Positions 3,105 through 63,312 of a stretch of 64,000 bases of DNA are shown piece after piece (positions within the stretch are counted from its first letter, which is position 1; every line of letters begins with the position of its first letter). The notes beneath the pieces are model-generated. The model was given only the letters and a program-made list of their open reading frames with translations, was not told where the DNA came from and ran no database searches. Origin of the DNA: a phage; the NCBI GenBank assembly GCA_033759635.1, contig GCA_033759635.1_4528.1, one strand, 5' to 3'. Position numbers and translations under genes: made by a program.

Positions 3105-3107
3105 ATA

Positions 3108-6751: not shown

Positions 6752-6853
6752 TTCTATTCTCTTCCGTTCTTCTGATATTCTGTTGAACCGGATTAATGGA
6801 AGAGACCTAAAACCATTATACTGTATTTTTATTAAAGCGTTTTTGAGGTGCTT

Positions 6854-7438
6854 ATGACTCGTCCAACGAGACAGATTTTTAACCAAACAAATATAACAAA
6901 CTTTGTTGTGGATATCCCAGATAGTACACGAACTTCAGGTTTTGTGCTCAATGCCCAAACGGCACCATTGCCAGGTGTGAGAATTCCTGTTGTTGAAACT
7001 GTGACAGGCACAATGGGGCTAGGGCGTGCAATGCGTGCAGGCACAACATTTGAATATGACCCTTTTATTGTACGATTTATAGTTGATGAAGACATGACGT
7101 CCTGGATGAACATGTATAAATGGATGCTCAGCACTAATAACTATATAACCGGACATAATACGGCCCATGCTGATGGTCCTGAGTTTGTTACTTTGCACAT
7201 TTTAAACAACAATAAGACTGAAGTCGTTTTGACGGCAAATTTCTATAAACCATGGATTTCCGATTTGAGCGAAATTGAATTTAGTTACACTGAAGATTCT
7301 GATCCTGCCGTTACGTGCGTAGCAACTATTCATTACGCGTATATGACGATAGAAAAAGACGGTGAAGTCATTGTATCTCAACAACCACGTCAGGCTGCCG
7401 AATCTAAATCCATTTCTAGACACCCTTCCTTGCGTTAA
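6854..7438 (+). CDS. 3: tail completion and sheath stabiliser protein gp3
   Basis: ORF 6848..7438 with ATG at 6854 after GAGGTG (MTRPTRQIF...); synteny. Confidence 0.65.
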   Translation: MTRPTRQIFNQTNITNFVVDIPDSTRTSGFVLNAQTAPLPGVRIPVVETVTGTMGLGRAMRAGTTFEYDPFIVRFIVDEDMTSWMNMYKWMLSTNNYITGHNTAHADGPEFVTLHILNNNKTEVVLTANFYKPWISDLSEIEFSYTEDSDPAVTCVATIHYAYMTIEKDGEVIVSQQPRQAAESKSISRHPSLR

Positions 7439-7492
7439 TCGCTTCTAGCTCCGTATGTTATAATCACTCATAAATTATATGAGGAAAAACCT

Positions 7493-8227
7493 ATGGAGCT
7501 AATCTTTTTAAGTGGCATCAAACGTAGTGGTAAAGACACTACTGCTGATTACATCAATTCAAACTTTAAATCCGTAAAATACCAATTAGCATATCCAATT
7601 AAAGACGCTCTAGCAATAGCCTGGGGGCGTAGACATGCCGAAAACCCTGATGTATTCACAGAGTTGAAATACGAATACTTTGAAGGCATTGGATACGACC
7701 GTGAAACACCATTAAATCTCAATAAGTTGGATGTTATTGAATTATTGGAAGAAGCGCTAATTTATTTACAAAGTCAATATTTACCAATTAATAATGTTAA
7801 AGTATTATCATCGTTAGAAGGTGGATACTCATATCTAGATATTAAACCGTACGAAGCCCTGCGTGAAGCTATAAATAATATCAACGACACATGGTCGATC
7901 CGCCGTCTTATGCAAGCCCTCGGTACGGATGTTGTCGTTAATTTATTTGACCGTATGTATTGGGTTAAGCTTTTTGCATTAAACTATATGGATTATATTG
8001 GAAGTGATTTCGATTACTATGTTGTGACCGATACACGCCAAGTCCATGAAATGGAAACCGCTAGAGCGATGGGTGCTACAGTTATTCATGTGGTTCGCTC
8101 TGGTACGGAATCCACCGATAAACATATTACAGAAGCTGGGTTGCCTATTGAAGAAGGCGACTTAGTTATTACAAACGACGGCTCGTTAGAAGAGCTTTAT
8201 TCTAAAATTGAAAAAATCTTAAGGTAA
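7493..8227 (+). CDS. 1: deoxynucleoside monophosphate kinase gp1
   Basis: 244 aa beginning MELIFLSGIKRSGKDTTADY (gp1-type phosphate-binding loop); T4 gp1 is 241 aa. Confidence 0.85.
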   Translation: MELIFLSGIKRSGKDTTADYINSNFKSVKYQLAYPIKDALAIAWGRRHAENPDVFTELKYEYFEGIGYDRETPLNLNKLDVIELLEEALIYLQSQYLPINNVKVLSSLEGGYSYLDIKPYEALREAINNINDTWSIRRLMQALGTDVVVNLFDRMYWVKLFALNYMDYIGSDFDYYVVTDTRQVHEMETARAMGATVIHVVRSGTESTDKHITEAGLPIEEGDLVITNDGSLEELYSKIEKILR

Positions 8228-10963: not shown

Positions 10964-11308
10964 ATGAAAGGCAATGTTTATCTGGTAGTTCATGATTTAA
11001 CGTTTTATTTTAACGAATATGATACAGTTATTTCTCATCGATTGATTAATTCGCTGTATCAGCATGCCGATTACATCTATGTTCAAAATGAATTTGGTCA
11101 TTGGAAGTTCATTAAAAACCGTTCCGGGTTAACTAGTTTTGAATACTTTGACCGTAAAGACCTTTTAAACGAAATCCCATTGCAACATCGGTTTCAGAAA
11201 CGCGAATCATTATATTATTGCCGTCATATACCAAACGCCGAATGTGTTGATGAAGCAATTAATCTATGGCGTAGACGTAGAGAACAAATTGATGATATGC
11301 CAAAATAA
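10964..11308 (+). CDS. hypothetical protein
   Basis: ORF 10916..11308 overlaps tRNA-Arg; trimmed to the Met with GAGGAA RBS (MKGNVYLVVHDL...). Confidence 0.5.
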   Translation: MKGNVYLVVHDLTFYFNEYDTVISHRLINSLYQHADYIYVQNEFGHWKFIKNRSGLTSFEYFDRKDLLNEIPLQHRFQKRESLYYCRHIPNAECVDEAINLWRRRREQIDDMPK

Positions 11309-11309
11309 G

Positions 11310-11618
11310 AAGCCGGGTCGCTACCGGCAAGTCGTCGGACTGATGTTCCCTGAGTAAGGACTGGTCTTAATAAATCTTTATGATTCGTTAATATCCCCTT
11401 ACATCACAGCAGAAACGGCGCACAGAATTATCGATTCGAGGAAATATCTTTGCCGTAAGCCGAGTAGCGTTTTTGACGGAACGTTCGGATATGGTCGAGA
11501 TATGGCCTTTTAAAAATATTGAGTAGCGTCAACTGCTTAATAACCGGGTTCGAATCCCGGCGTTTCGTACAAACACTTGCCTTAGCAGGTGGAACCCCGA
11601 CAAGGTTACCGCAAGGCT
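11310..11618 (+). ncRNA. ORF-free structured region downstream of the tRNAs; candidate small stable RNA(s)
   Basis: About 300 nt with no plausible plus-strand ORF; contains a perfect T-arm-like element CCGGG-TTCGAAT-CCCGG and a 7-bp acceptor-like pairing (CGGAACG/CGTTTCG), but no clean anticodon arm could be folded; ends in a strong terminator. Confidence 0.3.
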
Positions 11619-11619
11619 T

Positions 11620-11648
11620 AGCCCCTTCCGAAAGGTTGGGGCTTTTTT
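11620..11648 (+). terminator. rho-independent terminator (repeated cassette, copy 1)
   Basis: AGCCCC-ttccgaaaggtt-GGGGCT followed by TTTTTT. Confidence 0.7.
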
Positions 11649-11692
11649 GCATAATAATAAATAGATAAGTTAATTAACTTAGGAAAAGTAAC

Positions 11693-12157
11693 ATGAAATC
11701 ATATGCAGAATTTTTGACTGAACAATCTAGTTCAGATGTAAAAGCCGCTGCGATTGCAGCAATTCAAGCAGGTAAATATTCTTACAAAGACGCCTCTGAT
11801 GAAGAACGTTTCCGTTTTATTAGAGATTTTAAAGCCGAAGGTTTTACTAATGCTAATACTGTTAGCCGAGTTTTTAAAAGCCTAGCTGCATCAGGTGAAT
11901 TGTTCCAGAAAGCTACAGGTAAAGCACCAGCACCAAAAGCGGACCCTAAAGCAGCTCAAGAAAAAAATATCGCCAAAGGAATTATTTCTAAGTATGAAGC
12001 AATTCTTAAAGAACTTTTGGTAATCAAAACTGAAGGTCAGAAACTAGCTCGAGCACATAGCTTCAAAGATAATCCTCACGCTCATAGCCTTGAGTATGTT
12101 GAAGATATCCAAAAACTTATTAAAGACCGTATCTGGTCTGCTAAGCAAATTAAATAG
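11693..12157 (+). CDS. internal-protein-like protein with capsid targeting sequence
   Basis: N-terminus MKSYAEFLTEQ (targeting-sequence-like); 154 aa, Ala/Lys-rich. Confidence 0.5.
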   Translation: MKSYAEFLTEQSSSDVKAAAIAAIQAGKYSYKDASDEERFRFIRDFKAEGFTNANTVSRVFKSLAASGELFQKATGKAPAPKADPKAAQEKNIAKGIISKYEAILKELLVIKTEGQKLARAHSFKDNPHAHSLEYVEDIQKLIKDRIWSAKQIK

Positions 12158-12162
12158 TAGAA

Positions 12163-12190
12163 AGCCCCTTCCTTACGGTTGGGGCTTTTT
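12163..12190 (+). terminator. rho-independent terminator (repeated cassette, copy 2)
   Basis: AGCCCC-ttccttacggtt-GGGGC + TTTTT; near-identical to copies at 11620 and 27026. Confidence 0.7.
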
Positions 12191-12223
12191 GGCATCTAGG
12201 GCATAAAAATATTTCATAAAGAT

Positions 12224-12260
12224 GTTTACTTCTTCCCTAGATGTGTTACTATAGACCTAT
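12224..12260 (+). promoter_or_regulatory. early promoter cassette (GTTTAC ... TGTTACTAT)
   Basis: GTTTAC -35 and extended -10 TGTTACTATAG about 20 nt upstream of the 12281 start. Confidence 0.5.
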
Positions 12261-12280
12261 CAAAACATGAGGAAAATGTT

Positions 12281-12586
12281 ATGAGTCTTTACACTGAACT
12301 GAATAAAAAATCTGAAGAATCTGCTGAAACTATTTTTAAAAACGTGCAAAAGCGTATTTTAGAAAAGATGTATAACACCGCAGCTAAAGGTGAAAAATCT
12401 TGCCGGTTTCCGATGAGGTGTTCTTCAGATTTATGCGCAAACACTATTGAATGGCTGGAAAGTGAAGGTCTTACGGTAGAGAAAAACCCGGCGACTTCTA
12501 TTGATAGCGAATCATATATTAGTATTTCTTGGGATAAACCTCGTACGAATGAAGGACACTACAAGTTGTTAAGTTGGAAAAATTAA
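12281..12586 (+). CDS. hypothetical protein
   Basis: 101-aa ORF with AGGAAA RBS. Confidence 0.5.
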   Translation: MSLYTELNKKSEESAETIFKNVQKRILEKMYNTAAKGEKSCRFPMRCSSDLCANTIEWLESEGLTVEKNPATSIDSESYISISWDKPRTNEGHYKLLSWKN

Positions 12587-52739: not shown

Positions 52740-55451
52740 ATGAAAGAATTTTACTTAACGGTTGAACAGATTGGTGATTCAATTTTTGAACGTTACATCG
52801 ATTCTAATGGCCGTGAACGTACTCGTGAAGTAGAATATAAACCATCACTGTTTGCTCATTGTCCAGAAAGTCAGGCTACGAAATATTTCGATATCTACGG
52901 TAAGCCGTGTACTCGTAAGTTGTTCGCTAATATGCGTGATGCCTCCCAATGGATTAAACGCATGGAAGATATAGGACTTGAAGCACTTGGCATGGACGAT
53001 TTCAAATTGGCGTATTTGTCTGACACTTATAACTATGAAATCAAATACGACCATACAAAAATTCGTGTGGCTAACTTCGACATCGAAGTAACATCTCCGG
53101 ATGGGTTCCCTGAGCCGTCACAAGCAAAACATCCGATTGATGCTATCACCCATTATGACTCAATTGACGACAGGTTCTACGTATTTGATCTATTGAATTC
53201 TCCGTATGGTAATGTAGAAGAATGGTCTATCGAAATTGCGGCTAAGCTTCAAGAACAAGGTGGTGATGAAGTTCCATCCGAAATTATCGATAAAATCATT
53301 TATATGCCGTTCGATAACGAAAAAGAATTGTTGATGGAATATCTCAACTTCTGGCAACAGAAAACTCCTGTCATTTTGACTGGATGGAACGTTGAGTCAT
53401 TTGATATTCCATATGTGTATAACCGAATCAAGAATATTTTTGGCGAATCTACTGCGAAACGTTTATCACCACATCGTAAAACTCGTGTTAAAGTTATCGA
53501 AAACATGTATGGTTCTCGTGAAATCATTACATTGTTCGGTATCTCTGTTCTTGATTACATTGACCTTTACAAAAAATTCTCTTTTACCAATCAACCGTCG
53601 TATTCTCTGGATTACATTTCAGAATTTGAATTGAACGTTGGTAAACTGAAATATGACGGCCCTATTTCTAAGCTTCGTGAAAGCAATCACCAACGATATA
53701 TTTCTTATAACATTATCGACGTGTATCGTGTATTGCAAATTGATGCTAAGCGTCAGTTCATCAACTTGAGTTTGGACATGGGTTATTATGCTAAGATACA
53801 GATTCAATCTGTGTTTAGCCCAATTAAAACATGGGATGCTATTATTTTTAATAGCCTTAAAGAGCAGAACAAGGTGATTCCACAAGGTCGTTCTCACCCG
53901 GTTCAACCTTATCCTGGCGCTTTTGTTAAGGAACCTATTCCAAATCGATACAAATATGTAATGAGTTTCGACCTTACATCTCTGTATCCAAGTATTATTC
54001 GCCAAGTGAATATTAGCCCGGAAACAATAGCAGGAACGTTTAAAGTAGCTCCATTGCATGATTATATTAACGCAATCGCTGAACGTCCTTCAGATGTGTA
54101 CAGCTGCTCTCCTAATGGCATGATGTATTATAAAGACCGTGATGGTGTAGTTCCAACTGAAATCACTAAGGTCTTTAATCAACGTAAAGAACATAAAGGT
54201 TATATGCTTGCGGCTCAACGTAATGGTGAAATAATTAAAGAGGCATTGCATAATCCTAATCTTTCTGTTGACGAACCATTAGATGTTGATTATCGTTTCG
54301 ACTTCAGTGATGAGATTAAAGAAAAGATTAAAAAGTTGTCTGCTAAATCTCTTAATGAAATGTTGTTTAGAGCTCAACGTACTGAAGTTGCAGGTATGAC
54401 TGCACAGATTAACCGTAAATTGCTCATCAACTCGCTTTATGGTGCACTTGGAAACGTTTGGTTCCGTTATTATGATTTGCGTAATGCTACTGCAATCACA
54501 ACATTCGGGCAAATGGCTTTACAGTGGATTGAACGTAAAGTTAATGAATATCTGAATGAAGTTTGTGGTACAGAAGGTGAAGCTTTCGTTCTTTATGGTG
54601 ATACAGACTCTATTTACGTATCTGCTGATAAAATTATCGATAAGGTTGGTGAATCTAAATTCCGTGATACCAACCATTGGGTAGACTTCTTAGATAAGTT
54701 CGCACGTGAACGTATGGAACCGGCTATTGATAGAGGTTTCCGTGAAATGTGTGAATACATGAATAATAAGCAACATTTGATGTTCATGGACCGAGAAGCT
54801 ATCGCTGGTCCTCCGCTCGGTTCTAAAGGTATTGGTGGATTCTGGACTGGTAAGAAACGTTATGCATTAAACGTGTGGGATATGGAAGGAACCAGATACG
54901 CTGAGCCTAAACTTAAAATCATGGGTCTAGAGACTCAGAAATCTTCGACCCCTAAAGCAGTACAGAAAGCTCTTAAAGAATGTATTCGTCGTATGCTTCA
55001 AGAAGGTGAAGAATCATTACAAGAATATTTTAAAGAGTTTGAAAAAGAATTCCGTCAATTGAATTATATTAGCATCGCGTCGGTATCTTCTGCGAATAAC
55101 ATTGCTAAATATGATGTAGGTGGATTCCCTGGTCCCAAATGCCCGTTCCATATTCGTGGAATTCTGACATATAACCGAGCTATCAAAGGTAATATTGATG
55201 CTCCACAAGTTGTAGAAGGTGAAAAAGTATACGTTCTGCCTTTACGTGATGGAAACCCGTTCGGTGATAAATGTATCGCATGGCCTTCTGGTACGGAAAT
55301 CACCGATTTAATCAAAGATGATGTACTTCATTGGATGGACTATACTGTTCTCCTTGAGAAGACATTTATTAAACCACTTGAAGGATTCACAACAGCAGCT
55401 AAACTCGATTACGAGAAGAAAGCATCTCTGTTCGATATGTTTGATTTTTGA
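52740..55451 (+). CDS. 43: DNA polymerase gp43 (family B)
   Basis: 903 aa; exonuclease motifs (FDIEV), polymerase motifs (DxxSLYPS, KxxxNSxYG, YGDTDS). Confidence 0.95.
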   Translation: MKEFYLTVEQIGDSIFERYIDSNGRERTREVEYKPSLFAHCPESQATKYFDIYGKPCTRKLFANMRDASQWIKRMEDIGLEALGMDDFKLAYLSDTYNYEIKYDHTKIRVANFDIEVTSPDGFPEPSQAKHPIDAITHYDSIDDRFYVFDLLNSPYGNVEEWSIEIAAKLQEQGGDEVPSEIIDKIIYMPFDNEKELLMEYLNFWQQKTPVILTGWNVESFDIPYVYNRIKNIFGESTAKRLSPHRKTRVKVIENMYGSREIITLFGISVLDYIDLYKKFSFTNQPSYSLDYISEFELNVGKLKYDGPISKLRESNHQRYISYNIIDVYRVLQIDAKRQFINLSLDMGYYAKIQIQSVFSPIKTWDAIIFNSLKEQNKVIPQGRSHPVQPYPGAFVKEPIPNRYKYVMSFDLTSLYPSIIRQVNISPETIAGTFKVAPLHDYINAIAERPSDVYSCSPNGMMYYKDRDGVVPTEITKVFNQRKEHKGYMLAAQRNGEIIKEALHNPNLSVDEPLDVDYRFDFSDEIKEKIKKLSAKSLNEMLFRAQRTEVAGMTAQINRKLLINSLYGALGNVWFRYYDLRNATAITTFGQMALQWIERKVNEYLNEVCGTEGEAFVLYGDTDSIYVSADKIIDKVGESKFRDTNHWVDFLDKFARERMEPAIDRGFREMCEYMNNKQHLMFMDREAIAGPPLGSKGIGGFWTGKKRYALNVWDMEGTRYAEPKLKIMGLETQKSSTPKAVQKALKECIRRMLQEGEESLQEYFKEFEKEFRQLNYISIASVSSANNIAKYDVGGFPGPKCPFHIRGILTYNRAIKGNIDAPQVVEGEKVYVLPLRDGNPFGDKCIAWPSGTEITDLIKDDVLHWMDYTVLLEKTFIKPLEGFTTAAKLDYEKKASLFDMFDF

Positions 55452-55491: not shown

Positions 55492-56127
55492 ATGAAAACT
55501 ACTCCTATTACTATCGCTATTGACGCAATCATAAAACAAGCTTCTTCTTTGGCCGCTATGGCCAAAGTAATTAGTCAAAACCCTGCTCGTTATAATGCTA
55601 TTCTAGAAACTCTTCGACGCCCAGGACTGAGTAATTATGAAAGTCGTGTAATTATTACAGGTGTCGGTAAGAATGCTAATATCGCAACTAAAGCTTCCGA
55701 GACTTTTGCTTCATTGGGTATTCCTAGCATGTATTTGAACACCGGGCATTATTCTCATGGTGACGCAGGATTTATTGCACCTAATGATGTATTAGTTCAC
55801 ATCAGTCGTTCTGGTAAGACTGAAGAAATGATAGGTGTTGCTAAACATCTTCGTATGATTCGTCCTCAGGTTAAACAGATTCTGTTACATTGTAACCCTG
55901 ACATTCCACAAGAATACGAAGCTCTTTTTGATTATACGTTCTGTACCGGTATCGCGGTAGAAGTTGACGAGAACTCTTTAGCTCCGACAATGTCCACTAC
56001 ATTGTTGTTAGCGCTTATCGATACGTTCGCTATCAACCTTTCGTCTGAACGTGGATTTACCTCTAATGATTTCCTTAAGTTCCATCCAGGCGGTGCACTA
56101 GGTGCCATGTTACGAGGCGAGCAATGA
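55492..56127 (+). CDS. SIS-domain sugar-phosphate isomerase (KdsD/KpsF-like arabinose-5-phosphate isomerase core, no CBS domains)
   Basis: VIITGVGKNANIATKASETFASLGIPSMYLNTGHYSHGDAGFIAPNDVLVHISRSGKTEEM and C-terminal LAPTMSTT...FHPGGALGAMLRG align by eye with the KdsD SIS domain. Confidence 0.7.
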   Translation: MKTTPITIAIDAIIKQASSLAAMAKVISQNPARYNAILETLRRPGLSNYESRVIITGVGKNANIATKASETFASLGIPSMYLNTGHYSHGDAGFIAPNDVLVHISRSGKTEEMIGVAKHLRMIRPQVKQILLHCNPDIPQEYEALFDYTFCTGIAVEVDENSLAPTMSTTLLLALIDTFAINLSSERGFTSNDFLKFHPGGALGAMLRGEQ

Positions 56128-56267
56128 AAGCAATAACAATAGGACTTTTACTATTGATGCTTGTCATGACTATCTACTGGAGCTTAACGGCTCCAGTAAT
56201 GATTCCGACTCTTATAATCGGATGGATTATGATTGGACTACAAGCAAAGTATGAATGCTTTAACTAG
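56124..56267 (+). CDS. small hydrophobic membrane protein (47 aa; possibly Imm-like)
   Basis: MKAITIGLLLLMLVMTIYWSLTAPVMIPTLIIGWIMIGL...; ATGA-coupled to the SIS gene; sits where T4 imm lies. Confidence 0.35.
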   Translation: MKAITIGLLLLMLVMTIYWSLTAPVMIPTLIIGWIMIGLQAKYECFN

Positions 56268-56308
56268 AATAGTGTACAATACTCCTACTTACCAATGAGG
56301 ACCACAAC

Positions 56309-57997
56309 ATGAAAAAAGCTGTTATTCTTGGTGCTGGATTAGCAACTCGTTTATATCCAATTACTCACCATATTCCTAAGGTGCTTGTTAACTATAAACA
56401 AGACACTATTCTGAGCAATTTGTATACAATTTATTCTGACCTTGGCGCAGATGAAATTATTGTAGTAGTTCATTCAAAATTTGCTGAAACTGTTCGAGCT
56501 TATTGTGAGCAAGAAGGGTTCAATGTGACTATTCGTACAGTTGATGAAGCGTATGGTTCTGCTTATGCTCTTGCTAAATTACACAAAGATTTAGACGGCC
56601 ATAACGTAATTGTTAACTGGTGTGATATTATTCCTGATTTTGGTTCATGGTCTTGGAATGTTAACGCAATCTATGTTAAGGGTGATGAATGTCGATATAA
56701 TTTCGATGGTGAAAATATCACTAACGTAGGTTCAACTGGTGGTAATGTTGTAGGAATTTATCAGTTCAAAGACTGGGAATTCTATATGGGTTCTACTGAT
56801 GAGGAAATTCATGAATACTGCAAAGGACGTGATTTCGTAGAATTCCTTTACAGCGGCGCATTCAATAAATCAGAGCTTATGAATATCATCGACCTTGGTG
56901 ATATGCCTAAACTTGAAAAAGCTCATGAAGTTCGTGAACTTAATCGTAGTTTTAATGCAGTTGAAATTGGTGAAGAAACGGTAACAAAGATTGCTTTAAC
57001 AGAACAGGGCGTTGCACTTCAAAAAGATGAAGTCAATTGGTATAAGAAAGTTAAATCAGATTCAGTTCCACGGATTGTAAGTTATCATCCTGGCGGCCAC
57101 TTTATTATGGAACGCATTAAAGGTAAGCCGGCATTTGAATATATTAAATCCAAATCAAGTCTTGCTCGTCCACAAATTGTTGATGCAATTTTAGATGCAC
57201 TGAAATTCAGCACAGACATGTATTTTGTAAGTCCTGAAACTGTTCGTCGTGATTTCACTAAAGAATTCTATACGAAAGTTATTGATCGTTGTGAAAGTAT
57301 TCAACCATTGATTGATTCATTTGGTAAAATCACACATGTGAACTACACTAAGATTGGACGTCTGAAGCCAATGCTGAAGCAAGCTTTAGAACATCTTATT
57401 CGTTATCATACCCGTTCTCAGGGACAGTACTCTGTTATTCATGGTGACCCGAACTTCAGTAATACTATGATTACTGATAACGGCGAAGTCAAGTTTATCG
57501 ACCCTCGTGGATATTTTGGCGAAACCAAGATTTACGGGCCAAAATTGTACGATGAAGCTAAAGTGCTTTATGCTGTTTCAGGTTATGATGAATTCAATGC
57601 TAATCCGACCTGGGGACAGTTTACTATTGATGAAACAACTTGTAATGTGACTATTAACATCAATCCATTAATTTACAAATATGGAAAGATGAGTTCGTTT
57701 AACGAGTATCATCATTTGGCGGTGGCAATTATCTGGATTGCATTAGGTGGTTATTTCAAGAATAATCCACTTAAAGCGGTAGCCGCATATTATAAAGGTA
57801 TGGAACTTCTGACTAAGCAATTACGCAACATGGGCCGTGTACTTCAAGACGGCTCTATTAGTTATGACGTAGCAGGACCTGTAACGGCTACTCTGATTAC
57901 AAAAAATCCTGGTAAATGGGTACTAACTGATAAAGAAACTGGTGTTTCCTATCGTCCAATCGGTGGCGATATCACTCATCAATGGGAACGAATCTAA
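56309..57997 (+). CDS. bifunctional sugar-1-phosphate nucleotidyltransferase / sugar kinase (protein-kinase-like fold)
   Basis: N-terminus ILGAGLATRLYPITHHIPKVLV matches the RmlA/GlmU-type G-x-G-x-R...K motif; C-terminal half has the Brenner motif HGDPNFSN and the IDPRG metal-binding motif of APH/choline-kinase-type kinases; 562 aa. Confidence 0.65.
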   Translation: MKKAVILGAGLATRLYPITHHIPKVLVNYKQDTILSNLYTIYSDLGADEIIVVVHSKFAETVRAYCEQEGFNVTIRTVDEAYGSAYALAKLHKDLDGHNVIVNWCDIIPDFGSWSWNVNAIYVKGDECRYNFDGENITNVGSTGGNVVGIYQFKDWEFYMGSTDEEIHEYCKGRDFVEFLYSGAFNKSELMNIIDLGDMPKLEKAHEVRELNRSFNAVEIGEETVTKIALTEQGVALQKDEVNWYKKVKSDSVPRIVSYHPGGHFIMERIKGKPAFEYIKSKSSLARPQIVDAILDALKFSTDMYFVSPETVRRDFTKEFYTKVIDRCESIQPLIDSFGKITHVNYTKIGRLKPMLKQALEHLIRYHTRSQGQYSVIHGDPNFSNTMITDNGEVKFIDPRGYFGETKIYGPKLYDEAKVLYAVSGYDEFNANPTWGQFTIDETTCNVTININPLIYKYGKMSSFNEYHHLAVAIIWIALGGYFKNNPLKAVAAYYKGMELLTKQLRNMGRVLQDGSISYDVAGPVTATLITKNPGKWVLTDKETGVSYRPIGGDITHQWERI

Positions 57998-58383
57998 TGC
58001 ACCGTGTAGAAAACATGCTTAATCTTTGTTTTGATGTCGATGATTGTATAACAGAGTGGAATAACAATCGTGATTACGTGAACTTCAAACCAGACGTCGA
58101 AATGGTGTCTGCCATTAATGCCCTGTATGATGCAGGGCATACCATAACGCTTTACACTGCTCGTGGTATGAAGTCAGTAGGTCCTGGTCGTATAGCAATT
58201 GACATTCTCCCAAGTCTGATTCAGAACTTGGCAAACATTGGCTTGAAGTACCATAATTTGCTAACACATAAACCAGTATATGATTGGATTATCGACGACA
58301 AAGCTATGCGTCCTGACGAATTCAAAGCTCTTATGAATAAAGGCGAATTCGAAACATTTAAATCATATAAACCGAATCTATAA
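57997..58383 (+). CDS. HAD-superfamily phosphatase
   Basis: ORF 57982..58383 trimmed to the TAATG-coupled Met; HAD motif I FDVDDCIT, motif II LYTARG, motif IV IIDDKA. Confidence 0.6.
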   Translation: MHRVENMLNLCFDVDDCITEWNNNRDYVNFKPDVEMVSAINALYDAGHTITLYTARGMKSVGPGRIAIDILPSLIQNLANIGLKYHNLLTHKPVYDWIIDDKAMRPDEFKALMNKGEFETFKSYKPNL

Positions 58384-58437
58384 TAATTTAAGTAAGACCT
58401 GCAAAAACCATCGCATCAATTAACGCGAGATGCAAAA

Positions 58438-59598
58438 ATGAATACTTTTAAAATCGGAACGAATTTTGATTTAGCTCTTCTTGATAAAATCGTAGAGCTC
58501 AATAAAACTTATCCTAATAGCTTGATAAACGAAGTATACGGCTCTACAAGAGAAATGGCTTTTGTAGCAGCCAGACCTGATTTTAGGCTTCCTGACGTTG
58601 ACAAAAAGATGTTAGAAGATTACGTTAAACGTTGTAACGAATTAGGTATTTGCTTTAACTATACACTCAACACGATAAATCCTGGTTCAAAAAGAGAACT
58701 AGTCGAGTGGAAGAAGAAAGCTATTCAGGATTATGTTCAGTATCTTTGGTCAATAGGCGTATGGCGTATTACTATCGCTAACCCTGTTGTTATGGAAATT
58801 GTTCGTGAAGTCAATAAAGACATTGAGATTGAAGTTTCAACAATTCTACATGTCGATGCTGTAACTCAAATAAAATACTTACATGACCAATACAATATCA
58901 AAAAGGTCTGCTGTGGAATTCATAAGAACCGTTCAGTTTCTTTCCTGAAGCGTGCAGCAGAGTTTTGCAATAAGAACAATATAATATTTGAAGTTCTTGT
59001 AAATGAGTTCTGTTCTAATGCTGGTAAAGGGTATACAACACATTGTAGTTATCGTGACTCTTGCTATATTTTCCATAGTACTGATGTTACAGCTGATGAT
59101 GCTAAATCCTTAAATGGATATCCAATGCAACACTGCATTAAAGCTCGTGATACAGACCCATTTAACTGGTTGAGAACTCGTTTTGTTCGTCCTCAAGATT
59201 TGAAACTTTATAATGATATTGGTATCACTCAATTCAAAGTTTCAGGACGTACAGGTAGCACAGACTACATTTTGAAAGTTCTTGAAGCATACGCTTCTGA
59301 AAAGTTTGAAGGTAATTTGTTAGAACTGTGGAAGCCTTTAGAGACTATTTTCACTCTTGAAAATGAAACTGAGTTTTCACATACAGTAAATATTGAAACC
59401 TCTTTGTTAGATGGCTTTTTAGAAAAAAGGTGGTTCAGACATCCAGATTTTGATTGTGCTAATGAAATCTGTGGATCAACGTGTACATATTGTGAAAGAT
59501 ATTATAAACGTCAATTATCTAAAAACGGGTTAGCAGAAAACTCTATATCTATTATTGATATAACTAACTCTGATGACGCTCTGAGGTACCCGGAATGA
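58438..59598 (+). CDS. Cys-rich protein, possibly peptidase-U32-family-like Fe-S enzyme
   Basis: 386 aa; clusters EFCSNAGKGYTTHCSYRDSCY and CANEICGSTCTYCERYY; the U32 resemblance is by eye only. Confidence 0.3.
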   Translation: MNTFKIGTNFDLALLDKIVELNKTYPNSLINEVYGSTREMAFVAARPDFRLPDVDKKMLEDYVKRCNELGICFNYTLNTINPGSKRELVEWKKKAIQDYVQYLWSIGVWRITIANPVVMEIVREVNKDIEIEVSTILHVDAVTQIKYLHDQYNIKKVCCGIHKNRSVSFLKRAAEFCNKNNIIFEVLVNEFCSNAGKGYTTHCSYRDSCYIFHSTDVTADDAKSLNGYPMQHCIKARDTDPFNWLRTRFVRPQDLKLYNDIGITQFKVSGRTGSTDYILKVLEAYASEKFEGNLLELWKPLETIFTLENETEFSHTVNIETSLLDGFLEKRWFRHPDFDCANEICGSTCTYCERYYKRQLSKNGLAENSISIIDITNSDDALRYPE

Positions 59599-59834
59599 TT
59601 TCTAGAAAAACTTTTAATCACCAACTTAATGAAGAGATTTTGACTATTAAACTGAACACTAACGAACAAATTCTTAAAAAGGCCCTTATGGGCCTGTTTG
59701 AAACTAAAGCGGCTAAAGCGATTAAAGAACCTGTTCAACTAGAATACTATGCCGACGCATTCCTTCATAGTGTCCTTGGAAGTATTGATGCCGAAGCTCT
59801 ACGTTATATCAACATCGCTAAGAAATTCAAATAA
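59595..59834 (+). CDS. hypothetical protein
   Basis: 79-aa ORF, ATGA-coupled. Confidence 0.45.
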   Translation: MISRKTFNHQLNEEILTIKLNTNEQILKKALMGLFETKAAKAIKEPVQLEYYADAFLHSVLGSIDAEALRYINIAKKFK

Positions 59835-59875
59835 GCTTTATGAATTGAGTATATAATAACTGTATTGAGGTAAAC

Positions 59876-60592
59876 ATGGGAAAACATAACACAATGAAAT
59901 ATATTAAAGCCGCAGATTTTCAATCCGCATTTAAAGCTGTCAATCGTGAAATTTTAGAAAACCCGGAATTCGTAACTGATTCTCGTATTGGACGTTGTAA
60001 TGAAATTGGGTCTATGACAGTAGTTGTTGACACTCCATCATCATTCAAAATGACCGACCCACGTATTAATCGCATCTCTTATGAATATGCTGAAGATTTC
60101 TGGAAGTTTATGATTTCTGGTGGTACTGATGCAGAAGAAGCATTTAAGGCATATCCTAATGTCGCTAAATTTATTTCTAAACCAAAATCAGATGTTTTGC
60201 CTGCAAACTTCAACACTTTCTACGGTCCTCGCATTGCGGCCCAATTACCAGCTCTTCTAAAAGAACTTAAAGAGAAACCTAACTCTCGAAGAGTTGTGTT
60301 CCAAATTCTAGAAAGTTCTGATCAGGCTTTGCTTGATTCGGACGAAACACTTGAATATCCATGTACTGACTCGGTAACTTATTATATTCGTGATGGTAAG
60401 CTTTATACTCACTGTCATATGCGTTCCCAGAACTGTGCTGTTGTTATGCAGTTGGATTTTTATCTCCAAGGAAAATTACTTCATTATATCGCTAACGAAT
60501 GTGGTGTAGAAGTTGGTGATTATACTCATACCATGGTAAGTGCCCATGTGTTTGAACGTGATTTTGATTATGTTAAAGGATTCCTTGACTAA
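59876..60592 (+). CDS. 42: thymidylate-synthase-fold pyrimidine hydroxymethylase (gene 42-like dCMP hydroxymethylase)
   Basis: 238 aa; RRVVFQIL and EYPCTDSVTYY...HCHMRSQN resemble the TS/dCMP-hydroxymethylase active-site region; sits between 43 and uvsX like T4 gene 42; lacks the TS-specific GPVYG motif. Confidence 0.55.
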   Translation: MGKHNTMKYIKAADFQSAFKAVNREILENPEFVTDSRIGRCNEIGSMTVVVDTPSSFKMTDPRINRISYEYAEDFWKFMISGGTDAEEAFKAYPNVAKFISKPKSDVLPANFNTFYGPRIAAQLPALLKELKEKPNSRRVVFQILESSDQALLDSDETLEYPCTDSVTYYIRDGKLYTHCHMRSQNCAVVMQLDFYLQGKLLHYIANECGVEVGDYTHTMVSAHVFERDFDYVKGFLD

Positions 60593-61491
60593 TGGCTATT
60601 TTCCGCGTACCAATCTTGAGTATGCGGTCTTATGAAACTGGACAGTATGCTATCCTTAAGGATGGCAACTTCCAACTTCATTTGCACCGTGCTAATCCAG
60701 GCGATGTGATTACATATCCACGTAATGCATCTGATATTAAAGAATGTGAACGTCTTTTCCCAGAATTTAAGTTTGTTCCATTATGGTATAAAGATAACGC
60801 GTATAACACTCGTAAATATTTCTGGTCTGAAAATGAATTTGTGGTTGATTCATTAATTGCTTATTATGATTGTGATTTTCTAATCACAGATATCACTGGA
60901 TATGATGGCGCTTTTGACGTAGAATTCAATTTCAATATCACTGCAGACCCTAATAAACCACGTTTTTATATTGATGAATTCTTAAAAACCGACATGTTGT
61001 CTGTTAATCGTTCACTTCAAACTACTGTGTTGAATGAACGTCAAAAAGAAGTGCTGGTTAACGCAGGTGCAGATGGTAATAAGATTATCGTAACGCAGAA
61101 AGTTATACGTCCTTCCGTCATGCAGCGTCTTGTAGGTGATTTGGCTCCTATTCATCTAGATGGTATTTTTCATCCATTTCGAATTAGTGACCCATGCTAT
61201 CGTTTTGAACAAGTTGTTGAATGCGCAATTCAATTAGGTCAACCGCTTTATATAACTGATCCAAATAATAGCTTCGACAGAAATAAGTATCCTGAAGAAG
61301 CGCTGATTCGAATTTTTAATCCAACTAAAACTGAGTACTATCAAATTCTTAAAGGACGTCCGAAGATTCAATATTTCGAAAATCCTGAAGAAGTATTCCA
61401 TCCAGGTCTTGGTGAGTTCATCTACTTTAATGCTTTAATTTCTTCGCCGTATAATATACCTAAATACGAAGATGTCGTAATCGAGGAATAA
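60592..61491 (+). CDS. hypothetical protein in the beta-glucosyltransferase position (candidate DNA glycosyltransferase)
   Basis: 299 aa, ATGA-coupled to the gene-42-like ORF; occupies the slot T4 beta-gt holds; no similarity to T4 beta-gt noticed. Confidence 0.3.
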   Translation: MAIFRVPILSMRSYETGQYAILKDGNFQLHLHRANPGDVITYPRNASDIKECERLFPEFKFVPLWYKDNAYNTRKYFWSENEFVVDSLIAYYDCDFLITDITGYDGAFDVEFNFNITADPNKPRFYIDEFLKTDMLSVNRSLQTTVLNERQKEVLVNAGADGNKIIVTQKVIRPSVMQRLVGDLAPIHLDGIFHPFRISDPCYRFEQVVECAIQLGQPLYITDPNNSFDRNKYPEEALIRIFNPTKTEYYQILKGRPKIQYFENPEEVFHPGLGEFIYFNALISSPYNIPKYEDVVIEE

Positions 61492-61492
61492 A

Positions 61493-62041
61493 ATGGCTAA
61501 AATTATTTTAGTAGATGGCCCGGATAATGCCGGTAAAACAACTTTCATTAATGACATAATGGAAATTAGTGAAAGATATGTAAAGATTGATTTCCCTAAA
61601 CGAACAGTTGATGGACGTTTCGATGTTAAGTCTCGAAATGAAGTTGGTTGTTTCGAAACGATGTTGAATTATTTAGACCCTACTAAGATTTATCTGTTAG
61701 ACCGTGGATATATTAGTAACTGGGTTTATGGACGTATTCGACAAGATGCGGACTCGGTTCTTGACGTTTATGAACAGGACTATGTTCGTCTTTGCCAAAA
61801 CCATGATGTGTTCACAATTATTTTAACACGTAACGAAATGACTGAAAGTTTTGAAGACGACCTTATTACTTTGTCTTCATTCGGTTTTAATACAGTCATT
61901 TCACATTTTGAAGAGTTTGCAATTCATAACAAAATCCAAACATATCAATTACTTAATCATGATGGTGCTAACAAAGTTATAGGATTTAATGCAAGCGAAC
62001 GTAATGGTTTGATTACAGAAATCATCAAATGGGCTCGTTAA
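61493..62041 (+). CDS. thymidylate-kinase-like P-loop nucleotide kinase
   Basis: P-loop VDGPDNAGKTT and DRGY lid-like motif; 182 aa. Confidence 0.5.
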   Translation: MAKIILVDGPDNAGKTTFINDIMEISERYVKIDFPKRTVDGRFDVKSRNEVGCFETMLNYLDPTKIYLLDRGYISNWVYGRIRQDADSVLDVYEQDYVRLCQNHDVFTIILTRNEMTESFEDDLITLSSFGFNTVISHFEEFAIHNKIQTYQLLNHDGANKVIGFNASERNGLITEIIKWAR

Positions 62042-62139: not shown

Positions 62140-63312
62140 ATGTCTGATTTAAAATCTCGTCTGATTAAAGCTTCTACTTCTAAAATGACTGCAGACTTGA
62201 CTAAGTCTAAGCTGTTTAATAATCGTGATGAAGTCCCTACTCGTATTCCGATGTTGAATATTGCACTAGGTGGTGCTCTGAATGCAGGATTGCAATCAGG
62301 CTTGACTATTTTTGCTGCACCTTCTAAACATTTTAAAACATTGTTTGGACTAACTATGGTTGCAGCTTATATGAAGAAATATAAAGATGCAATCTGTTTG
62401 TTCTATGACTCAGAATTCGGTGCTTCAGAATCTTATTTTCGTTCAATGGGTGTCGATTTAGACCGTGTAGTTCATACTCCTATTCAATCTGTCGAACAAC
62501 TTAAAGTTGATATGACTAATCAGCTTGACGCTATTGAACGCGGTGATAAAGTTATTATCTTTATCGATTCAATCGGTAATACTGCATCTAAGAAAGAAAC
62601 CGAAGATGCATTGAACGAGAAAGTCGTAGGTGATATGTCTCGTGCTAAGGCACTTAAATCTCTTTTCCGTATTGTAACTCCTTATCTGACTATTAAAGAT
62701 ATTCCATGTGTTGCAATCAACCATACAGCAATGGAAATCGGCGGATTGTATCCTAAAGAGATTATGGGCGGTGGTACAGGTATTCTTTATTCTGCCAACA
62801 CGGTATTTTTTATCTCTAAACGTCAGGTTAAAGAAGGTACAGAATTGACCGGTTATGACTTCACGTTGAAAGCGGAAAAATCTCGTACAGTTAAAGAGAA
62901 ATCTACTTTCCCGATCACGGTTAATTTTGATGGCGGTATTGACCCATTCAGTGGCTTGTTAGAAATGGCAACTGAAATTGGTTTTGTAGTTAAGCCTAAA
63001 GCCGGGTGGTATGCTCGTGAATTCCTTGACGAAGAAACAGGCGAAATGATTCGTGAAGAGAAATCATGGCGTGCTAAAGCTACTGATTGTGTAGAATTCT
63101 GGGGACCTTTGTTTAAACATAAGCCTTTCCGAGATGCAATTGAAACTAAATATAAACTAGGTGCTATCTCTTCTATTAAAGAAGTTGATGACGCTGTTAA
63201 CGACCTTATTAATTGCAAAGCAACAACTAAAGTTCCTGTTAAAGCTTCTGATGCTCCGTCTGCAGCAGATATTGAAAACGACCTTGACGAAATGGAAGAT
63301 TTCGATGAATAA
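62140..63312 (+). CDS. uvsX: UvsX recombinase (RecA-like)
   Basis: MSDLKSRLIKASTSK..., Walker A PSKHFKT, Walker B IIFIDSIG; 390 aa as T4 UvsX. Confidence 0.95.
   Translation: MSDLKSRLIKASTSKMTADLTKSKLFNNRDEVPTRIPMLNIALGGALNAGLQSGLTIFAAPSKHFKTLFGLTMVAAYMKKYKDAICLFYDSEFGASESYFRSMGVDLDRVVHTPIQSVEQLKVDMTNQLDAIERGDKVIIFIDSIGNTASKKETEDALNEKVVGDMSRAKALKSLFRIVTPYLTIKDIPCVAINHTAMEIGGLYPKEIMGGGTGILYSANTVFFISKRQVKEGTELTGYDFTLKAEKSRTVKEKSTFPITVNFDGGIDPFSGLLEMATEIGFVVKPKAGWYAREFLDEETGEMIREEKSWRAKATDCVEFWGPLFKHKPFRDAIETKYKLGAISSIKEVDDAVNDLINCKATTKVPVKASDAPSAADIENDLDEMEDFDE

Follow-up and report, generated by a model that had tools for sequence, protein, structure and literature searches.

A probable arabinosyl-5-hydroxycytosine DNA hypermodification cluster in an RB69-like phage, and a possible role for its U32-family protein

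Introduction

Which modified base does a phage produce when the T4 interval made up of 43, imm.1, imm, 42, b-gt, segA and uvsX holds a different set of genes, and what would each gene contribute? In the phage DNA analysed here (64,000 nucleotides, called the window below) positions 55492-62041 carry nine co-directional genes on the + strand, flanked by DNA polymerase and uvsX. The first-pass annotation had compared this slot with that of T4, and the comparison stands. It had read the genes as a phage-encoded module for an activated sugar and DNA hypermodification, which published HY126 and RB69 work bears out (PMC13326640), and had left undecided whether these genes were already in the literature. 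They were: in 2018 they were proposed to form a UDP-arabinose module (PMC6024577), and in 2025-26 they were described as an arabinosylation cluster (Lee et al. NAR 2026, PMC13326640; also He et al. Nat Chem Biol 2026 and Mahler et al. Cell Host Microbe 2025), so the module is already known.

Results

All seven ORFs named in the first-pass annotation are present on the + strand at the positions it gave, between DNA polymerase and uvsX; two small genes, of 47 and 79 codons, were absent from it (Table 1). The family calls hold: SIS, NTP_transferase and Thymidylat_synt score above Pfam gathering, as does Peptidase_U32 for the Cys-rich 386-aa protein, and NCBIfam gives KpsF/GutQ and EcbF/BcbF capsule phosphatase matches. 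The genes had also been called translationally coupled. This is true of SIS/47-aa ORF, NTase-kinase/HAD, U32/79-aa ORF and TS/GT (ATGA or TAATG overlaps) and of GT/Tmk (gap of 1 nt), but not of the NTase/kinase, U32 and TS genes, which are preceded by gaps of 41-54 nt; two of these three gaps hold middle-promoter-like motifs. The MotA-box-like pattern GCTTYA-N10-13-TAYAAT was found 9 times in the window by pattern search, against 0.28 expected, and by comparison with the T4 consensus we read such motifs as putative T4-type middle promoters. Base composition is ordinary (GC 0.366 in the module versus 0.369 in the window).

Table 1. Module genes, flanking genes and promoter-like motifs, in window positions
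Feature	Position	Strand	Evidence or remark
DNA polymerase	52740-55451		upstream flank of module
Putative SIS-only D-arabinose-5-phosphate isomerase, 211 aa, RB69 gp55 ortholog	55492..56127	+	Pfam SIS E 9.6e-10
47-aa hydrophobic two-TM ORF, RB69p054 ortholog	56124..56267	+	phrog_3610 E 4.5e-27; ATGA overlap with SIS stop
MotA-box-like middle-promoter motif	56257..56280	+	upstream of NTase/kinase gene; pattern search
Putative bifunctional NTase/kinase, 562 aa, HY126 AfhE / RB69 gp52:53 ortholog	56309..57997	+	Pfam NTP_transferase
HAD-type phosphatase, HY126 AfhF / RB69 gp51 ortholog	57997..58383	+	NCBIfam TIGR01689 capsule biosynthesis phosphatase E 4e-13
U32-family Fe-S protein, Cys-rich, 386 aa, RB69 gp50 ortholog	58438..59598	+	Pfam Peptidase_U32 and fold
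79-aa ORF, RB69 gp49 ortholog	59595..59834	+	phrog_8601 E 2e-50; ATGA overlap with U32 stop
MotA-box-like middle-promoter motif	59835..59857	+	upstream of dCMP hydroxylase gene; pattern search
Putative thymidylate-synthase-fold dCMP 5-hydroxylase (5hodCMP synthase), 238 aa, RB69 gp48 ortholog	59876..60592	+	Pfam Thymidylat_synt E 2.4e-15
GT-B-fold glycosyltransferase, 299 aa, RB69 gp46:47 ortholog, proposed first DNA arabinosyltransferase	60592..61491	+	AF2 model, Foldseek
MotA-box-like middle-promoter motif	61432..61455	+	within GT gene 3' end, upstream of Tmk-like gene; pattern search
Tmk-like P-loop nucleotide kinase, 182 aa, RB69 gp45 ortholog	61493..62041	+	phrog_761 thymidylate kinase E 6e-45
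uvsX	62140-63312		downstream flank of module

Identity of the module proteins to RB69 gp45-gp55 is 94-100% and to those of phage HY126 (Afh cluster) 98-100%, gene order from gp43 to uvsX is the same in both, and the DNA is 97% identical to >150 Mosigvirus genomes. DNA of RB69 and DLP3 carries mono- and poly-arabinosyl-5hoC (PMC13326640), and a second laboratory found the same ara-5hoC chemistry in Mosigvirus NP (PMC13390438); the base is ether-linked arabinosyl- and diarabinosyl-5-hydroxycytosine, a correction of the former 'arabinosyl-hmC' (PMC13326640, PMC13390438). With a probability of about 0.9 we therefore read the region, sugar and base branches included, as the arabinosyl-5-hydroxycytosine (ara-5hoC) hypermodification cluster of an RB69-like phage (Mosigvirus). 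Every activity given below for this phage is one that we infer by transfer from an RB69, HY126 or DLP3 protein. The window represents another isolate (∼97% DNA identity). Two of its genes, which sequencing errors break up in the RB69 reference, are intact, as is the 79-aa ORF, which is frameshifted in the HY126 record.

The sugar branch would begin with the SIS protein, which probably converts ribulose-5-P to D-arabinose-5-P. Its NCBIfam matches to KpsF/GutQ (E 9e-32) and KdsD (E 4e-30) are both below cut-off because it has no CBS pair. It matches the A5P isomerases 3etn, 5uqi and 2xhz of the PDB at E 1e-24 to 2e-18, its GVGKN, HGDAG, SGKTEE and HPGGALG motifs align with such enzymes, and it is 98% identical to RB69p055 and identical to its HY126 counterpart at 208 of 211 positions. 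The next protein is a fusion, as had been claimed: residues 3-99 match NTP_transferase (Pfam, 38.9 bits versus a cut-off of 21.2), with GAGLATRL at 8-15, and APH and other kinase families match weakly (Pfam, 16.8 bits), with a Brenner motif HGDPNFSN at 378-385 and IDPRG at 397-401. The gene, one of those split in the RB69 reference, is a single ORF here, and its product is identical to HY126 AfhE at 554 of 562 residues (98.6%). The HAD phosphatase (motifs DVDD, TAR and DDK) is identical to HY126 AfhF over the annotated length (128/128, 100%); the longest form of its ORF starts at 57982, and the RB69 and HY126 annotation uses the ATG at 57997, in the TAATG overlap.

As He et al. 2026 are reported in PMC13326640, the C-terminal APH-like kinase of AfhE phosphorylates C1 of arabinose-5-P, its N-terminal domain makes UDP-arabinofuranose from arabinose-1-P and UTP, and AfhF takes the 5-phosphate off arabinose-1,5-bisphosphate. 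From these near-identical enzymes we infer that in the window phage the kinase domain would give arabinofuranose-1,5-bisphosphate, the phosphatase would remove its 5-phosphate to leave arabinose-1-P, and the nucleotidyltransferase domain would complete UDP-arabinofuranose. The AfhE and AfhF reports match the route foreseen in the first-pass annotation, D-arabinose made from ribulose-5-P by the logic of GmhA/HldE/GmhB. With the ADP-heptose pathway the module shares a SIS isomerase, an anomeric kinase whose substrate is a sugar phosphate, HAD removal of the distal phosphate and a nucleotidyltransferase, and, as in HldE, kinase and transferase are one protein. The two differ in sugar and nucleotide (pentose and UDP versus heptose and ADP) and in the kinase, which is APH-like here and ribokinase-like there; in the window fusion the transferase is N-terminal and the kinase C-terminal.

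On the base, the first-pass annotation was mistaken: it had named a gene-42-like hydroxymethylase and hydroxymethylcytosine as acceptor. The TS homolog is only 25% identical to T4 gp42, where polymerase and UvsX reach 62% and 68% against T4. It is identical at 235 of 238 positions (98.7%) to PDB 9IQC/9IR2/9IQU, the HY126 enzyme, the three differences from 9IQC falling at the same positions as those from HY126, and 99% identical to RB69 gp48. Its signature E160, C163, N186 and D194 corresponds to ThyA L143E, C146, D169N and N177D. D169N, shared with RB69 and HY126, is present in the window enzyme and five other ara-5hoC phages, whereas T4 gp42 keeps Asp; Asn at this position is a marker of 5hodCMP synthases. 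RB69 gp48 makes 5-hydroxy-dCMP with oxygen from O2, requires reduced flavin and co-purifies with flavin, and alone is enough for 5hodC formation in E. coli; its product has a mass of 243 Da, which rises to 245 Da when 18O2 is supplied; T4 gp42, put through the same assay, yielded 5hmdC (PMC13326640).

That the enzyme is nevertheless a gene-42-type dCMP hydroxymethylase making hmC, which the NDP-arabinose of the module would turn into arabinosyl-hydroxymethylcytosine, is scarcely credible. It does occupy the gene-42 slot and retains, as gp42 does, the catalytic Cys and the dCMP-specifying Asp (ThyA 177), and the 2018 RB69 paper assigned ara-hmC (PMC6024577); but sequence identities and the Asn at 169 point the other way, two later papers call that assignment erroneous (PMC13326640, PMC13390438), and for RB69 arabinosyl-hmC is already refuted. 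By extension from this 99%-identical protein, the window enzyme would use O2 and a flavin that it binds loosely to hydroxylate dCMP at C5. A phage dNMP kinase encoded elsewhere and the host NDP kinase would carry the product to 5hodCTP, which the polymerase would insert instead of dCTP.

For the 299-aa protein, 295 of whose residues are identical in HY126, Pfam and NCBIfam searches gave no family, and blastp against T4 ORFs of the fetched region (beta-gt included) found no match at E 1e-3. Foldseek with its AF2 model (pLDDT 94.3) returned as top PDB matches the retaining GT MshA 3c4q (E 1e-6, TMq 0.59), HepE, 6kih and UDP-GlcNAc 2-epimerases. On the strength of the model we propose a GT-B fold and the role of first arabinosyltransferase acting on 5-hydroxycytosine; this role is a proposal in PMC13326640 too, and single GTs were inactive on 5hoC DNA in that work. 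The protein would link one arabinose to the 5-hydroxyl, another would be added by a second transferase, whose gene lies near rIIA outside the window, and the modified DNA would withstand restriction enzymes. The likeness to the T4 gene 42/alpha-gt/beta-gt system is that, in the same slot, dCMP is altered by a TS-fold enzyme ahead of replication and the hydroxyl so gained receives a sugar from a GT-B enzyme. In T4, however, the group is a hydroxymethyl made with methylene-tetrahydrofolate and water, rather than a hydroxyl made with flavin and O2, and the sugar comes from host UDP-glucose, not as arabinofuranose from a phage-made UDP-sugar.

The Tmk-like kinase accompanies the module in every lineage examined; it has weak NCBIfam dTMP-kinase matches only, a Walker A GPDNAGKT in its translation and 99% identity to RB69p045. 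The 47-aa ORF is identical in HY126 (47/47), and an ORF is annotated at the equivalent position in LC53, PM2 and PEi20. The 79-aa ORF fills the slot held by chorismate mutase in related phages. We rejected it as a chorismate mutase, given no CM_2 match and an hhalign probability of 0.3% against phage chorismate mutases, and these searches found no such gene in the window; Pectobacterium phage PM2 has both a 79-aa ORF homolog and a chorismate mutase.

Discussion

What the U32-family protein does is the more difficult question. Its conservation exceeds that of every other module protein (79-89% identity across genera, also above DNA polymerase), and nine cysteines are invariant among 121 aligned of its >200 homologs. 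In six lineages tested, its stop codon is overlapped by a chorismate mutase gene (Pfam CM_2), and the linkage occurs in 51 phage records; in Thanatos-2 the pair lies at another place in the cluster. In 12 unrelated metagenomic phage loci its neighbours are homologs of the 299-aa GT protein (GT299; 4 loci), NTase/kinase and SIS (2), DAHP-synthase/CM fusions (2), or dCMP deaminase, dNK or NT5C, with no TS homolog within the fetched stretch (up to 8 kb each side). In T4-like and unrelated phages alike it sits among GT299 homologs, Tmk-like kinases, dCMP deaminase, dNK, NT5C and dUTPase, where the start and stop codons of adjacent genes often overlap.

We tentatively suggest, at somewhat less than even odds, that this protein provides a second, O2-independent and prephenate-dependent route to the cytosine 5-hydroxyl. 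Every U32 function that has been characterised is a hydroxylation independent of O2 and linked to prephenate, and two of these act at C5 of a pyrimidine (PMC5727448, PMC6599085, PMC10990095), although in vitro hydroxylation by any U32 protein is so far not demonstrated in this literature. With RlhA (ho5C2501), TrhP (ho5U34) and UbiU-UbiV the phage protein shares the U32 domain and fold, and it conserves the Glu and two Cys that are indispensable to TrhP and RlhA; what the phage requires is likewise hydroxylation of a pyrimidine at C5, and a chorismate mutase gene is coupled in related phages. E. coli pairs an O2-dependent with a U32 enzyme in TrhO/TrhP and UbiI-H-F/UbiU-V, a parallel to the O2/flavin enzyme and U32 of the phage, with the same proposed product. 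The differences are considerable: identity to the E. coli paralogs is 17-20%, Cys spacing is C192-x10-C203-x5-C209-x23-C233 with an extra C-terminal CX4CX3CX2C in place of the canonical CX6CX15CX3-4C, the presumed substrate is a deoxynucleotide or DNA, and the window has no chorismate mutase. We know of no U32 member that acts on a deoxynucleotide or on DNA. DLP3 makes ara-5hoC with a cluster that, as listed, has no U32 gene (PMC13326640), and Dhakavirus VR5 (E. coli phage) and Acinetobacter phage Maestro have the pathway without U32; U32 is therefore not needed for the product.

It is unlikely, in our view, that U32 is not a hydroxylase but a reductase or accessory of the sugar or flavin branch, working on the pentose or the heterocycle or reducing flavin for the TS-fold hydroxylase. 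The only published label of RB69 gp50 is 'sugar or heterocycle reductase', and the hydroxylase does need reduced flavin (Lee et al., PMC13326640). The two invariant Cys clusters would suit electron transfer, and in one metagenomic locus U32 adjoins a DAHP_synth_1/KdsA-like gene and an epimerase. Against this, we know of no U32 family member that is a reductase, and the chorismate mutase linkage and the GT-U32 pairs lacking a TS homolog would go unexplained. Moreover, gp48 sufficed by itself for 5hodC in E. coli (PMC13326640), and 5hoC-arabinofuranose chemistry is identical in RB69, with U32, and DLP3, with none as listed, so no extra sugar or base chemistry remains for U32.

It is improbable that the location in a DNA cluster is incidental and the protein hydroxylates RNA (host or phage tRNA U34, or rRNA C2501) in the manner reported for TrhP and RlhA: the known nucleic-acid substrates of the family are RNAs only and the E/C/C triad is kept, but the RlhA DUF3656 and TrhP C-terminal regions are missing, the E. 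coli paralogs are distant, and the gene is embedded among deoxynucleotide and DNA-glycosylation genes in T4-like and unrelated phages. A true collagenase-type peptidase, as many phage records annotate it ('peptidase' or 'collagenase'), or a passenger gene that plays no part in modification, is hardly to be believed in view of the conservation and invariant cysteines described above and of RlhA and UbiU-V work that makes peptidase activity of the family doubtful.

Should U32 indeed be a second, O2-independent route to the 5-hydroxyl, DNA modification would be possible while a facultatively anaerobic host grows without oxygen.

Organization of the locus

Nine ORFs on the plus strand sit between the DNA polymerase gene and uvsX (see the table below). 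The first-pass annotation had described a module here from seven of them, and that observation is confirmed; the two small ORFs it missed are both members of conserved phage families. Its positional comparison with T4 was also right, as imm.1, imm, 42, beta-gt and segA occupy the same interval in T4. The translational coupling it proposed holds for several gene pairs that overlap by ATGA or TAATG, but three gaps of 41–54 nt interrupt the chain. Two of these three gaps contain a MotA-box-like middle-promoter motif. The pattern GCTTYA-N10-13-TAYAAT, which we take to be a MotA box plus –10 element as in T4 middle promoters, occurs nine times in the window versus 0.28 expected by chance, seven times on the plus strand. 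Only this type of pattern was enriched, while scans of the module for sigma-70 promoters and for terminators showed no enrichment versus shuffled sequences. Recent horizontal transfer or a compositional anomaly of the module was considered and dropped, since its GC content equals the window average.

Features of the locus, their coordinates in the window and identity of the encoded proteins to HY126 orthologs
Feature	Coordinates	Strand	Identical residues (HY126)
DNA polymerase gene	52740-55451		
SIS protein, 211 aa	55492-56127	+	208/211
Hydrophobic ORF, 47 aa	56124-56267	+	47/47
NTase/kinase fusion protein, 562 aa	56309-57997	+	554/562
HAD-like protein, 128 or 133 aa	57997 or 57982 to 58383	+	128/128
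Cys-rich U32 protein, 386 aa	58438-59598	+	384/386
ORF, 79 aa	59595-59834	+	
Thymidylate synthase (TS) homolog, 238 aa	59876-60592	+	235/238
GT299, 299 aa	60592-61491	+	295/299
P-loop (Tmk-like) protein, 182 aa	61493-62041	+	179/182
uvsX	62140-63312		
GCTTYA-N10-13-TAYAAT sites	6815, 32251, 38088, 42231, 48437, 49660, 56257, 59835, 61432		

The HAD gene has an ambiguous start: its longest ORF overlaps the upstream gene by 16 nt, while the internal ATG at 57997 (TAATG overlap), preceded by a GGGAA stretch 8–12 nt upstream, is the start annotated in RB69 and HY126. Phages LC53 and PEi20 (loci L001 and L008, both 4352-4990) have a homing-endonuclease gene, annotated as segC or putative endonuclease, between the HAD and U32 genes, which echoes T4 segA adjoining beta-gt. 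The 47-aa ORF has two hydrophobic stretches and overlaps the SIS stop codon by ATGA. It belongs to phrog_3610 (E 4.5e-27), and an ORF is annotated at its position in LC53, PM2 and PEi20; T4 carries the membrane protein Imm in the corresponding neighbourhood.

The region is a known Mosigvirus cluster

The 6.5-kb region has 97% DNA identity to more than 150 RB69-like (Mosigvirus) genomes. Gene content and order from gp43 to uvsX match one-to-one both RB69 (RB69p055 down to RB69p045) and HY126, with protein identities of 94–100% to RB69 orthologs and 98–100% to those of HY126. By these similarities the region is the already known Mosigvirus cluster for arabinosyl-5-hydroxycytosine (ara-5hoC), called gp45-55 in RB69 and Afh in HY126, and activities are assigned here by transfer from near-identical proteins: HY126 enzymes have been studied biochemically, while the window proteins are known from sequence. 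Prior description goes back to 2018, when the gene set was flagged as a candidate UDP-arabinose module (PMC6024577). The full ara-5hoC cluster was described in the literature of 2025–26, so this finding is already known, and all that its rediscovery adds is a correct annotation of the window and a corrected base chemistry.

The RB69 reference (locus L004) splits the NTase/kinase gene (2373-4059, p053/p052) and the glycosyltransferase gene (6656-7556, p047/p046). Each is one intact ORF in the window and likewise in every other relative examined, which agrees with the published sequencing errors in RB69 52/53 and 46/47. The second arabinosyltransferase (homolog of RB69 gp3/ORF003c), encoded near rIIA, would lie outside the 64-kb window by RB69 synteny.

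The base branch

The proposal of a gene-42-like hydroxymethylase producing arabinosyl-hmC is not borne out. The TS homolog is only 25% identical to T4 gp42, versus 62% for the flanking polymerase and 68% for UvsX. With E. coli ThyA numbering, its residues C163, N186, D194 and E160 align at positions 146, 169, 177 and 143. The catalytic Cys146 is thus kept, and position 177 is Asp as in gp42; Asp at this position gives dCMP specificity. Position 169 is Asn in the window, RB69, LC53, Thanatos-2, VR5 and Maestro and Asp in ThyA and gp42. D169N is a marker of 5-hydroxy-dCMP synthases, validated on nine further homologs (Lee et al., PMC13326640). By this signature the protein is of the 5-hydroxy-dCMP synthase type and not a gene-42 ortholog. 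It differs from PDB entries 9IQC, 9IR2 and 9IQU at three residues, the same three as versus the HY126 gene product, so these structures are of the HY126 enzyme.

Published chemistry agrees. The RB69 ortholog expressed in E. coli made 5-hydroxy-dC with oxygen derived from 18O2 and co-purified with flavin, while T4 gp42 in the same assay gave 5-hydroxymethyl-dC (PMC13326640). In RB69 DNA, 5-hydroxycytosine bears one or two arabinoses joined through an ether link (PMC13326640), and a second laboratory found the same base in Mosigvirus NP and called the earlier arabinosyl-hmC assignment erroneous (PMC13390438).

The sugar branch and glycosyl transfer

The other half of the first-pass proposal, an arabinose route through isomerase, anomeric kinase, phosphatase and nucleotidyltransferase by analogy with ADP-heptose, is supported by transfer from the near-identical HY126 proteins. 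The SIS protein scores above the Pfam SIS cut-off, its active-site motifs align with arabinose-5-phosphate isomerase structures 3etn and 5uqi, and it also matches 2xhz (E 2e-18). Its 211 aa comprise the SIS domain only, with no C-terminal pair of CBS domains, and its scores for full-length equivalogs are 105–111 bits versus cut-offs of 204–505. It therefore looks like a KdsD/GutQ-type arabinose-5-phosphate isomerase core and not like a full-length member. The N-terminus of the fusion protein (NTP_transferase, 38.9 bits versus a cut-off of 21.2; GAGLATRL at 8-15, the GxGxxTRL motif) is predicted to be a sugar-1-phosphate nucleotidyltransferase. Its C-terminus gives weak matches to kinase families (Pfam APH, 16.8 bits, below the 23.2 cut-off) and keeps the catalytic motifs HGDPNFSN (HxDxxxxN) and IDPRG (IDxxG); structural matches of the kinase domain have been published for the RB69 fusion protein (PMC13326640). 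The HAD-like protein has motifs DVDD (18-21), TAR (59-61) and DDK (105-107) and matches the EcbF/BcbF capsule-biosynthesis phosphatase family TIGR01689 at E 4e-13, below the family cut-off. According to the summary of He et al. 2026 given by Lee et al. 2026 (PMC13326640), HY126 AfhE first phosphorylates arabinose-5-P, giving the 1,5-bisphosphate, and at a later step forms UDP-arabinose; AfhF takes off the 5-phosphate.

Two Klebsiella phages (L005, L006) and Dhakavirus VR5 (L019) keep the NTase/kinase, HAD, Tmk-like, TS and glycosyltransferase genes and have no SIS isomerase; they presumably rely on host KdsD/GutQ for arabinose-5-P. The Tmk-like protein accompanies the module in every lineage examined, and in these same three phages its gene is found upstream of the U32 or TS gene rather than after the glycosyltransferase gene.

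GT299 matched no sequence family in Pfam or NCBIfam. Its AF2 model, built from a 40-homolog alignment (pLDDT 94.3), has two Rossmann-like domains, and the best solved structures found by Foldseek were MshA, HepE, sucrose-phosphate synthase and UDP-GlcNAc 2-epimerases (E 1e-6 to 6e-5, TM 0.4–0.6). The model thus predicts a GT-B fold, and GT299 is the arabinosyltransferase proposed in the literature to add the first sugar (PMC13326640).

A U32-family protein in the cluster

The Cys-rich protein has a Peptidase_U32 domain and fold. A PDB sequence search with it returned nothing at E up to 1, and fold search alone gave a PDB match, 5d88. Window residues E185, C192 and C209 share alignment columns with E162/C170/C177 of TrhP and E161/C169/C176 of RlhA, where this Glu and both Cys are essential (PMC6599085); they are invariant or nearly so in 41–121 homologs. 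Cysteines 158, 192, 203, 209 and 233 together with a C-terminal CX4CX3CX2C are invariant across 121 homologs, down to 48% identity. The canonical four-Cys Fe–S motif CX6CX15CX3-4C is not kept: the window spacing is C192-x10-C203-x5-C209-x23-C233, versus Cys at 169/176/193/232, 170/177/193/197 and 169/176/192/196 in E. coli members. Four invariant cysteines are available for an Fe–S cluster, whose binding is putative. Equivalence of C233 with UbiU C232 is not claimed, as their alignment columns are five positions apart.

The U32 protein is the best conserved in the module, with 79–89% identity in phages ranging from those of Klebsiella and Serratia to Thanatos-2, a distant Shewanella phage. For DNA polymerase the range is 72–83% across the seven T4-like relatives with this gene in the fetched locus (that of Thanatos-2 does not reach it), and for the sugar enzymes 44–72%. 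In six lineages tested, a small ORF overlapping the U32 stop codon is a chorismate mutase (CM; Pfam CM_2 above cut-off). Chorismate mutase makes prephenate. By tblastn the CM gene is found in 51 phage records, all in genera carrying U32, and all of the 40 matches listed coincide with or adjoin the TS-homolog gene, or the U32 gene in the case of Thanatos. In Thanatos-2 the U32–CM pair stands elsewhere in the cluster, as if both genes move together.

CM is absent from the window. Its 79-aa ORF in the same slot was considered as a diverged CM and rejected: there is no CM_2 match, the hhalign probability is 0.3%, and PM2 carries both genes. It had no Pfam match at E up to 10 and is 19–20% identical to the phage CMs. 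With no CM in the window and the 79-aa ORF being a different protein, prephenate would need host PheA/TyrA. In the HY126 record (L026, 8287-8409) a one-base insertion cuts this ORF to 40 aa, so either the ORF is dispensable or the record contains a sequencing error.

Homologs at 48–58% identity are carried by twelve metagenomic phage-like loci, half of which have DnaE-type polymerases and none a match to the T4-type polymerase of the window. U32 comes directly after a GT299-family gene in four of these loci (overlapping it in three), accompanies NTase/kinase and SIS homologs in two, and adjoins a DAHP-synthase/CM fusion in two and dCMP deaminase in two; in other loci its neighbours are NT5C, deoxynucleoside kinase or Tmk-like kinases. 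No TS homolog was found in any of the twelve (tblastn with window TS, E. coli ThyA and T4 gp42, up to 8 kb on each side), a search that covers the fetched stretch, so that a more distant TS gene on these contigs is possible.

Several of these loci have an arrangement of their own. In L010 (5447-7086) and L012 (7504-9083), from contigs of 466 and 60 kb with DnaE polymerase, a U32 homolog 55–56% identical to that of the window comes immediately after a gene for dCMP/cytidine deaminase and before a conserved ORF of 250 aa without family. This arrangement may point to a pathway for hydroxylated uracil or cytosine nucleotides in phages that are unrelated. The DAHP-synthase/CM fusion beside U32 in L025 (6503-7501) and L028 (9219-10316) joins entry into the shikimate pathway with the formation of prephenate in a single polypeptide; the L025 fusion sits within a cluster of NTase/kinase, Tmk-like, HAD and U32 genes. 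In L011 an additional U32 paralog, highly divergent at 22% identity and bearing a C-terminal Cys motif of its own, is encoded at 11227-12360, at a distance of 4 kb from the other; it is surrounded by genes for a radical-SAM protein, deoxynucleoside kinase, NT5C and a nucleoside deoxyribosyltransferase-like protein.

Possible functions of the U32 protein

Molecular oxygen is required by the published hydroxylase, yet the gut enterobacteria on which these phages prey frequently grow anaerobically. Under anoxia a phage would be stuck if it destroyed dCTP and could not produce 5hodCTP. T-even phages encode an anaerobic ribonucleotide reductase, a sign that they replicate in oxygen-poor hosts. Taken with the comparative evidence, the simplest reading is that the U32 protein gives the same 5-hydroxyl from prephenate without O2. 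It would be a C5-hydroxylase that depends on prephenate and not on O2, with a cytosine deoxynucleotide or the cytosine of DNA as its substrate, and would be supported by a phage CM in most non-Mosigvirus relatives; we hold this tentatively, at a probability of about 40%. These phages could then reach 5-hydroxycytosine in two ways, through the O2/flavin TS-fold enzyme in air and through U32 under anoxia, and on DnaE-type contigs with glycosyltransferase–U32 pairs and no TS homolog in the fetched stretch U32 would be the sole hydroxylase. The scheme mirrors the O2-dependent and prephenate-dependent host pairs TrhO/TrhP and UbiIHF/UbiUV.

Every characterised U32 function is an O2-independent, prephenate-linked hydroxylation (PMC5727448, PMC6599085, PMC10990095): RlhA is required for 5-hydroxycytidine in 23S rRNA, TrhP for 5-hydroxyuridine in tRNA, and UbiU–UbiV for anaerobic ubiquinone hydroxylations, with prephenate shown as the oxygen donor. 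Against a hydroxylase in the phage stand the absence of a CM from the window, the Dhakavirus and Acinetobacter phages, which run the pathway without U32, and the fact that in vitro reconstitution has not been achieved for any U32 enzyme. A strict rule under which U32 is present with facultatively anaerobic hosts and absent with aerobic ones was rejected: U32 is missing both from Acinetobacter phages and from Dhakavirus VR5, and as the latter infects E. coli, U32 is accessory rather than host-determined.

An unlikely though still appreciable alternative is a reductase or electron-transfer helper. RB69 gp50, the ortholog, appears in Lee et al. solely as a table entry, "sugar or heterocycle reductase", and is not discussed (PMC13326640). 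Their Discussion mentions other pyrimidine hydroxylation pathways for RNA, citing the RlhA paper, with no link to gp50 (PMC13326640). Hydroxylation of RNA, the activity reported for TrhP and RlhA, we consider quite improbable for the phage protein. A peptidase, as the domain name has it, or a mere passenger gene is very hard to credit. Our literature search found no paper linking U32 to phage cytosine or DNA hydroxylation; He et al. 2026 and Mahler et al. 2025 were outside its scope, and the idea may be in print.

Significance

The cluster explains how Mosigvirus and its relatives, a large group of coliphages that are candidates for therapy, shield their DNA against restriction enzymes and CRISPR nucleases, and it has also been proposed to account for the lack of gene exchange between RB69 and T4. 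Beyond what is already known of it, the U32 protein could be one testable lead. If the hydroxylase reading is true, it would extend the poorly understood U32 family from RNA and quinones to DNA, as the first of its enzymes to act on DNA precursors, and offer a tractable system for reconstituting U32 chemistry. The duality of O2-dependent and prephenate-dependent enzymes seen in TrhO/TrhP and UbiIHF/UbiUV would then exist in a virus, and U32-bearing and U32-lacking phages (e.g. Dhakavirus) would be expected to show oxygen-dependent differences in host range and in therapeutic performance.
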